Assembly: GCF_006345805.1 (NCBI RefSeq) | Contig: NC_043013.1 | Location: 8,866,001-8,930,000, forward strand | Length of the DNA stretch: 64,000 nt | From: Octopus sinensis | Lineage: Eukaryota | Direction of reading: 5' to 3' | In this document: piece after piece, positions 7,914 through 8,730 of the stretch | How positions within the stretch are numbered: the stretch's first letter is position 1 | How the letters are laid out: each line of letters begins with the position of its first letter | Translations under genes and position numbers: made by a program | The notes under the pieces: generated by a model | What the model saw: the letters and a program-made list of their open reading frames with translations, nothing else | Database searches by the model: none | What the model was told of the DNA's origin: nothing

Positions 7914-7914
<1 letters not shown>

Positions 7915-8730
7915 GTAAACAGTAAAATTAATTACAGACATGGACAAGAACATGAAACACCACAGAGACGACACAAGAACCACAGGACGGGACATTCGAA
8001 GCCCTCAGTCATCAGTCAAGAACCAGATCATCTTAGCAATTTCGGCTGATTAATCTTGAGATTGCTCCGATATGGCCAGCCCGCCAAGGGAAATCTAAGC
8101 CAAGCGCATTAGATCCCCTGGAAGAAAGCTTCGAATGTATACAACGAAAGGACGGAAAACGATCGAAGTACACAAACAAAAATACAGAATACGTGACACC
8201 AATAAGAATACAAAAACGTAAAAACAATAACGGTAAAAATAAAAAATAAACAACAAAACAAAACCAGGACGTAGGACAAGGGTCTTTCGACAGGACGATT
8301 TGAGAATGGGGCTGGCTTGTGAAGTTGTGCCTAAAGGCCACGGGGAGACGAACAAATACGTGTTGCTTCTGAGGCTGCTGAAAACGAAAAGAGCGCTCAA
8401 CAGCGGCTAGCTGTCACGTGAGAACAAAAGACAGGAGAAAGGGACAGATGAAAAGGGAGAGAAGGTGGACGAGGGAGGAGAAGAAAGAGACAGATCGAGG
8501 GGGCTGGAGGTGAGAGAGATAGAGAAACGTAGAAAGGGGGGGACGGATGGAGAGGGAAAGAAAGGAAGTGGAATAAGGGAGGAGAGAGAGAGAGAGAAAA
8601 AGAGACAGATTAAGAGTCGTATCAAAGCTTGAGAAAAAAATATACTTATCGTATAAGGACAATTGTGGATACGTAGCCGCCGATTATATAGGTAAACAGT
8701 AAAATTAATTACAGACATGGACAAGAACAT
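7914..8730 (-). mobile_element. Non-coding insertion with 40-bp terminal direct repeat; Penelope pseudo-LTR-plus-tail or retrozyme-like
   Basis: GGTAAACAGTAAAATTAATTACAGACATGGACAAGAACAT at 7914-7953 and 8691-8730 (period 777). It sits in the SINE's (TA)n and is absent from all other units. The class assignment is inference. Confidence 0.75.
8000..8066 (-). ncRNA. Candidate non-circularly permuted hammerhead ribozyme
   Basis: AGCAA-UC-UCAAGA uuaauc AGCC-GAAA-UUGCU aagaugaucuggu UCUUGA-CUGAUGA-cugag-GGCU. Perfect 6-bp stems III and I abut the core motifs; stem II needs a 5-nt insertion. Confidence 0.55.

Follow-up and report, generated by a model that had tools for sequence, protein, structure and literature searches.

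Metazoan non-LTR retrozymes carry type I hammerheads and have been found with type I descriptors, as the available portions of two reports describe (Cervera and de la Pena 2020, PMC7229834; Li, Clavereau and Pollet 2026, bioRxiv 10.64898/2026.07.22.740005). A different strand order is represented by HRIMA-1, a type-SGC, non-circularly permuted hammerhead (Eckert et al. 2023, PMC10085705); the accessible text of that paper assumes that block C is uninterruptible, and the accessible part of its supplement gave no match to octopus or mollusc. The available part of Perreault 2011 (PMC3088659) reports core insertions of 1–2 nt only. Naiads, which are Penelope-like elements (PLEs), have no canonical hammerhead but just ‘core’ or ‘half core’ strings, and cephalopod Naiads are described as long inactive, as far as the available text of Craig et al. 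2021 goes (PMC8557442).

The window, the whole stretch of 64,000 nucleotides of Octopus sinensis DNA that was analysed, contains an insertion that is best explained (probability roughly 0.7) as a copy of a young non-coding repeat. Its minus-strand RNA is predicted to cut itself by a split-core, non-circularly permuted hammerhead, and an enzyme borrowed from a retrotransposon likely reverse-transcribes this RNA into (TA)n, in many cases probably from a closed circle. Such an element would work like a metazoan non-LTR retrozyme minus the type I hammerhead, with both circular RNA and self-cleavage predicted. As in those retrozymes, to the extent of the published text available, the units are tandem and ORF-less, with one hammerhead per unit, ∼44% G+C and a size within the reported range, and circle-templated copying by PLE enzymes is proposed; unlike them, the octopus element has a split S-G-C core and no type I hammerhead. 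The dispersed insertions give one fixed point of priming, a footprint of run-off at the cut and evidence that units within an insertion are homogeneous, findings that go beyond the available portions of the non-LTR retrozyme reports. With HRIMA-1, as its accessible description stands, the element shares the order S-G-C, the full core, stems I and III, a short stem I–II linker and a helix between the other strands of stems I and II. It differs in that block C is not intact: CUGAnGA has no stem II after it, and two further helices, X and Y, lie between A9 and G10.1. Like Naiad PLEs in the available text (PMC8557442), it targets (TA)n and forms partial tandem copies, and the Naiad_Obim 3′ end has the split-core fold with a kink-turn; unlike them, it lacks an RT or GIY-YIG ORF, has no sequence match to the Naiad end and belongs to a young family. 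The plant LTR retrozymes, in the portions of the reports available (PMC6765202, bioRxiv 10.64898/2026.07.22.740005), are likewise non-coding, of similar size and have a ribozyme-processed circular intermediate (proposed here for the octopus element), which, unlike them, has no fixed-length LTR pair, no 4-bp target duplication that we could see and no type III hammerhead. The papers searched, few of them subscription papers, yielded no description of the split-core fold or of the family.

The insertion and its host site comprise the following features.

7877–7913: (TA)n target within the host SINE; the (TA)n resumes after 8730
7914–8730, minus strand: whole insertion, 1.05 units (817 bp); the RNA sense is the minus strand
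7914–8690, minus strand: 777-bp unit; 7914 is the fixed family end and presumed cDNA start
8691–8730, minus strand: start of a second lap, 40 bp; its length differs among copies
8685–8690, plus strand: internal TATATA adjoining the fixed end; 6-base left extension of the repeat; 328 exact unit junctions
8430–8610, plus strand: purine tract, a pyrimidine tract in the RNA, found in sister families too
8413–8421: CACGTG E-box-like motif adjoining the purine tract, retained in three families

The basic description given by an earlier, sequence-only reading of this DNA stands. The 40-bp direct repeat is exact (7914–7953 and 8691–8730) and its 40-mer is otherwise absent from the 64-kb window; the match grows by 6 bases to the left only, via TATATA. 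There is no credible ORF, the longest stop-free frame being a low-complexity run of 126 codons, and a circular reading of the unit gives the same result. The skewed block at 8430–8610 is 89% purine on the plus strand. The adjacent CACGTG (8413–8421) might, at a guess, be part of an internal promoter. Together with an upstream TACGACTCT island it is conserved around the pyrimidine tract in families 1–3 (8413–8421; L123, L127, L084), and family 3 has a TATA-like box downstream; together these may form an internal promoter.

The host repeat consists of nine copies of a ∼6.5-kb unit (window 3500–64000) made of SINEs and microsatellites without a long ORF. A decayed LINE-like fragment lies at window 1–2100 (minus strand), and 1433–1891 (minus strand) holds what we take to be an endonuclease-like frame. 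Copies of the flank occur at 15043, 21407, 27934, 34320, 40832, 51503, 53726 and 60173. Because the window contains no second copy of the 777-bp element, these eight SINE copies are empty sites, as had been claimed, and the 40-mer, which is missing at all eight, is not a target-site duplication. The window unit is 0.13–0.26% away from its nearest copies, against several percent among the host repeats, which dates the insertion after the host array and agrees with the proposed activity of the family after the host unit arose. A second, independent insertion, of 1.15 units and 99.7% identical, lies ∼42 kb before the window copy in different flanks (L002/L361).

Across its own genome the ORF-less unit is represented by at least 762 insertions (exact fixed-end pattern; control 0) and by 328 further exact unit–unit junctions found by pattern search. 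A DNA search of the same genome gave 93 matches (40 scored of 1505 candidates), all of which begin at query positions 1–15 and have scattered ends, and the fixed end follows (TA)n in the 30 loci inspected. For footprint analysis we used the first 90 of 100 listed fixed-end places, unselected for length. More than one unit is present in 27 of these 90 insertions (28 counting L200), and the variable end ranges from 17 bp up to 5.2 units, the longest array fetched. Rows for L046, L193 and L215 were corrected by hand for spurious chain extensions, and L200, which has a deleted unit, was counted as passing one unit. The high copy number, tandem multimers (up to 5.2 units) and variable junction positions expected by the sequence-only reading are therefore all present, with a single fixed end in (TA)n. 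Such copies, fixed at one end only, do not fit an LTR or DNA element, in which both ends would be fixed. The 40 bp also cannot be kept as a short Penelope-type tail: the overrun beyond one unit varies from 33 to 762 bp in the 27 longer copies and marks the start of a second lap, with no fixed length. Both identities considered for the 40-mer, a target duplication and a fixed tail, were thus rejected by comparison within the window and among copies. As side observations, distinct families of the group, plus a PLE, adjoin in the same (TA)n runs (L051, L091, L106, L142, L207), and in L295 a family-4 copy is duplicated together with its flank at a period of 1288, a local duplication and not a lap.

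The predicted ribozyme occupies a small part of the unit, with these elements.

7992–8138, minus strand: predicted split-core hammerhead domain, closed by helix X
8124–8138 with 7992–8006, minus strand: helix X, 15 bp
8084–8121, minus strand: hairpin Y, between helix X and G10.1; missing in a mobile subfamily
8076–8081, minus strand: displaced 5′ strand of stem II, GGCUGG; partner 8044–8049
8069–8075, minus strand: 5′ strand of the stem I–II interaction helix; partner 8023–8029
8054–8066, minus strand: block S (stem III strand 8061–8066, AUC, stem I strand 8054–8059)
8035–8049, minus strand: block G (stem II 3′ strand, GAAA, stem III strand)
8030–8035, minus strand: predicted kink-turn from stem III to the interaction helix; 3-nt bulge, G.A and A.G pairs with 8066–8068
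8009–8021, minus strand: block C, truncated (stem I strand 8016–8021, CUGAUGA 8009–8015), followed by helix X

Along the minus strand the cut site with stems III and I is followed by GAAA and then by CUGAUGA, which gives the order S-G-C and a full core. None of 5000 dinucleotide-shuffled versions of the unit contained S-G-C blocks in which stems I and III reach 6 bp each, and 3 of 5000 did when the stems were relaxed to 4/4 bp. The earlier identification of a permuted hammerhead survives in its pattern and its cut (8060/8059, minus strand); stem II is not placed as in the published permuted kind. The core is open between A9 and G10.1, where helix X and hairpin Y are inserted, and the 5′ strand of stem II lies upstream of block S. 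An ordinary stem II after CUGAUGA would have at most 1 bp in all 48 copies that could be parsed (48 of the 90 loci), and the upstream strand is 93.6% paired vs 51% for the best downstream alternative; that alternative (CUGA with UCAG) was dropped at this level of pairing. A type I hammerhead via a downstream GAAU...GUC, which lacks stem I or III, was dropped by eye. The Rfam scan of the window returned nothing at gathering score. MFE folding gives the region no preference (z=0.9) by a method that cannot represent its pseudoknots. The substitution level in the ribozyme domain is 0.73%, vs 1.6–1.8% in the remaining unit.

A natural variant bears on which parts of this fold matter. In one subfamily a deletion of 42 bp removes hairpin Y exactly; it is present in four insertions, three of them multimers (L044, L106, L357, L358; two of the four were picked for short spacing), and in each unit of the three arrays. 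Because this subfamily is mobile, hairpin Y is seemingly dispensable, and what stays constant is the opening at A9. A viroid hammerhead tolerates one extra base between A9 and G10.1, which makes an opening of the core at this point plausible. Hammerheads with extra helices are reportedly covered by Weinberg et al. 2015 (PMC4509812), whose variant may overlap with the split-core fold. We found no tested ribozyme with a core opened between A9 and G10.1 in the literature searched. Pattern scans gave 14 metagenome matches without stems, by eye due to chance, and 0 in viral contigs.

Several sister families have the same fold. Counting the family of the window copy as family 1, the tally of five families plus Naiad is a lower bound. 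Family 2, with 54 pattern matches, is old; family 3 has 1042 matches, and families 4 and 5 have 3466 and 1553 first-look candidates, respectively. The tandem period in families 2–5 is ∼740–870 bp. In a 14-row alignment of families 1–3, pairing reaches 87.8% over the seven helices and 10 pairs change on both sides, counts that kinship among the rows inflates. Stem I shows two-sided change at three of its six pairs in this alignment, and the interaction helix between stems I and II is 91% paired with two pairs changed on both sides. Stem II shows no two-sided change within families 1–3. Three types of stem II occur (GGCUG, GAAGG and GACACC), G10.1–C11.1 being invariant, and families 4 and 5 have GAAGG or GAAGGA, likewise upstream; the covariation of stem II depends on families 4 and 5 and Naiad, and on few independent events. 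Within CUGAnGA, N7 alone varies among families, and the cut triplets are AUC, GUU, GUC and GUA. The junction around A9 is a gapless four-way junction in families 2, 4, 5 and Naiad and has 2-nt gaps in family 1; the gapless arrangement of A9, X, Y and stem II is the commonest parse of family 5 (14 of 29) and occurs in copies of families 2 and 4. Families 4 and 5 also allow a weak ordinary stem II of 4 bp, with two G.U pairs and a 1-nt slip. The segment at 8030–8035 is presumably a kink-turn, and the standard kink-turn pattern is present in 186 of 189 matches of families 1–2, in 8 of 12 for Naiad and in 0 in families 3–5. Read by eye, the published consensus of Naiad_Obim also ends in the split-core fold, its stem II being GACACC. 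A motif derived from it has 332 matches in this genome at a median of 83% identity, and no Naiad ORF was recovered at these loci. Judged by its sequence, the Naiad family with the split-core fold is old, hence not the present donor. Several of the old Naiad-type 3′ ends with this fold (L327–L356) begin a few bases upstream of the cut or of stem II.

The positions at which insertions end bear on the predicted cleavage. The 5′ end of the cut RNA is predicted at unit position 146 (cut 8059/8060). In the first lap, 26 of the 90 insertions end at unit positions 127–150, an interval set after inspection of the data (0 end at 151–183; ∼1.9 expected), most of these ends being 1–14 nt short of the cut and some at TA microhomology. 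Stops at the cut on later laps are rare: 1 of 20 (Fisher p=0.021), or 3 of 58 once 26 score-picked arrays are added, vs 26 of 84 on the first lap (p=1e-4). Family 3, sampled by its own fixed end and with its cut at position 140, repeats the pattern, 9 of 30 loci (two of the 30 being arms of one insertion) ending at 123–140, 0 at 144–274, and 0 of 7 stopping there on later laps. The pile-up matches, and indirectly suggests, run-off from a cut RNA whose self-cleavage is predicted. Assembled contigs that we guess to derive from RNA (7 different runs of 21 listed) include one that joins unrelated sequence at 8059, and loose ends in these contigs presumably resemble a template-switch adapter; assembled contigs cannot reveal RNA ends, strand or level, and we give neither observation evidential weight.

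Longer copies give a second footprint. In 37 insertions, 71 of the 84 non-consensus bases of unit 1 repeat in the last partial unit, with 14.4 expected. Mean distance within arrays is 2.1% vs 2.6% between arrays, and 6 of 15 arrays contain identical units, a homogeneity that conversion or assembly polishing could also have produced. At the cut junction, 86 of 102 read-throughs, which may include a few loci twice, match exactly across 31 nt, much as four control stretches do; in one read-through, 4 nt have been inserted precisely at the cut. The pattern fits one template per insertion, with copying from cut linear monomers and from circles. A linear multimer as template is disfavoured because each unit would have its own cut, yet later laps seldom stop there. 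The multimers, the pile-up at the cut site and the homogeneity within insertions agree with the earlier proposal of reverse transcription from a circular or tandem ∼777-nt RNA.

Under our preferred reading, transcription of copies of at least ∼1.3 units, with one cut per unit, would release a 777-nt monomer starting at unit position 146, and part of the monomers would be ligated. The window copy cannot itself release a monomer because it contains just one cut site. An endonuclease would nick (TA)n, and the internal UA run of the RNA, 146 nt from the cut, would anneal to the 3′ end. Internal priming on a nicked target is suggested by the coincidence of the fixed end with TATATA inside the unit. 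On linear cut RNA the enzyme would run off at the cut and leave copies of 127–150 bp; on a circle it would continue for up to five laps and could leave anywhere. For the window copy, it would have left 40 nt into lap two.

Rolling copying need not require a covalent circle. With a real ribozyme, an enzyme on a linear monomer could jump from the 5′ end to that monomer’s own 3′ end at each lap, which would account equally for the pile-up, the homogeneity within insertions and the missing later-lap stops; the 4-nt insertion exactly at the cut in one read-through also speaks for it. Template jumps usually add or lose bases, as work on R2 indicates, and this counts against end-jumping, as do the 86 of 102 exact junctions and a rate of change equal to that of the control stretches. 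Animal retrozyme RNAs are in addition mostly circular according to the available text of PMC7229834, and we regard end-jumping as unlikely.

It is also quite unlikely that the templates are linear read-through transcripts of arrays that end in flanking (UA)n, with unequal crossing-over enlarging the arrays and the ribozyme trimming 5′ ends only. Target-primed reverse transcription ordinarily leaves variable 5′ ends and a constant 3′ end, here in (TA)n, and any transcribed copy with one cut site could yield short copies. Read-through arrays should, however, have their own cut or stop in each unit, and later-lap stops are rare (3 of 58 vs 26 of 84); moreover, the variants of unit 1 recur in terminal partial units, and repeated 5′ truncation would lead to a falling unit number. 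Least probable is a structured RNA that stalls the enzyme without cutting, the hammerhead letters being a relic: the ribozyme is predicted only, MFE folding (z=0.9) lends no support to the pseudoknotted region and stalls too would be lost on later laps once the RNA pairs with cDNA, but in two families the stops fall on the structure’s far side with a sharp edge at the predicted bond, the core bases are all retained across six families while stems are replaced, and the domain is less variable than the remaining unit (0.73% vs 1.6–1.8%).

If self-cleavage and circle copying are as we propose, the consequences extend beyond this family. On balance we favour the view that the element has an active hammerhead with a seventh topology, which is permuted non-circularly, has its core opened by a four-way junction and powers a whole class of circular-RNA retroelements in animals that type I searches miss. 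In this view it is also the ribozyme thought absent from Naiads, and its footprints in the genome chart both cleavage and target-primed, rolling-circle reverse transcription in the germline. If true, the stated rule that stem II cannot be parted from the CUGAnGA block would no longer hold, and non-circular permutations, so far reported from sequence surveys of circular-RNA-rich samples, would be present in thousands of copies in an animal genome. Such a ribozyme would also be a possible answer to the apparent absence of hammerheads in Naiads. Circle-templated copying of retrozymes would become a testable scheme with a defined priming site, a cut site and a natural hairpin Y deletion mutant.

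The borrowed enzyme was probably that of a Penelope-like element; otherwise a HERO-type LINE or another non-LTR element would be the donor. Two intact, young families encoding RT and GIY-YIG, of 781 and 775 codons, have fixed ends in (TA)n, and one PLE copy is likewise a partial tandem whose junction falls at an internal TA run. The link to PLEs drawn by the sequence-only reading holds only for the fold, shared with the old Naiad, and for the (TA)n signature; no sequence link to the two intact young PLE families was found among the best GIY-YIG candidates. The 777-bp element and these two families have no sequence or fold in common, model R1 had no match at 62 PLE loci (the best GIY-YIG candidates) but one at E=0.44, BLAST of the element against 12 PLE loci found none, and none of the 90 sampled insertions has an ORF-bearing extension. 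The 781-codon PLE (L151:2032–4374, plus strand; also L152–L155 and L159–L161) has a C-terminal GIY-YIG and copies that are 97–99% identical. Repeated CCAAT and TGACGTC boxes lie downstream of its ORF, and near its end is a motif resembling a type I hammerhead whose core is altered to UUGAUAA. The 775-codon PLE (L158, L223–L252) is represented by several identical proteins and has a (TA)n end without the split-core fold. PLEs often have an inverted, 5′-truncated copy beside them; here, inverted arms occur in 0 of the 90 family-1 insertions and in one head-to-head case among the 30 family-3 loci (L387–L388), where arms of 38 and 133 bp both start from the fixed end. Inverted pieces of family 2 are present in L075 and L084.
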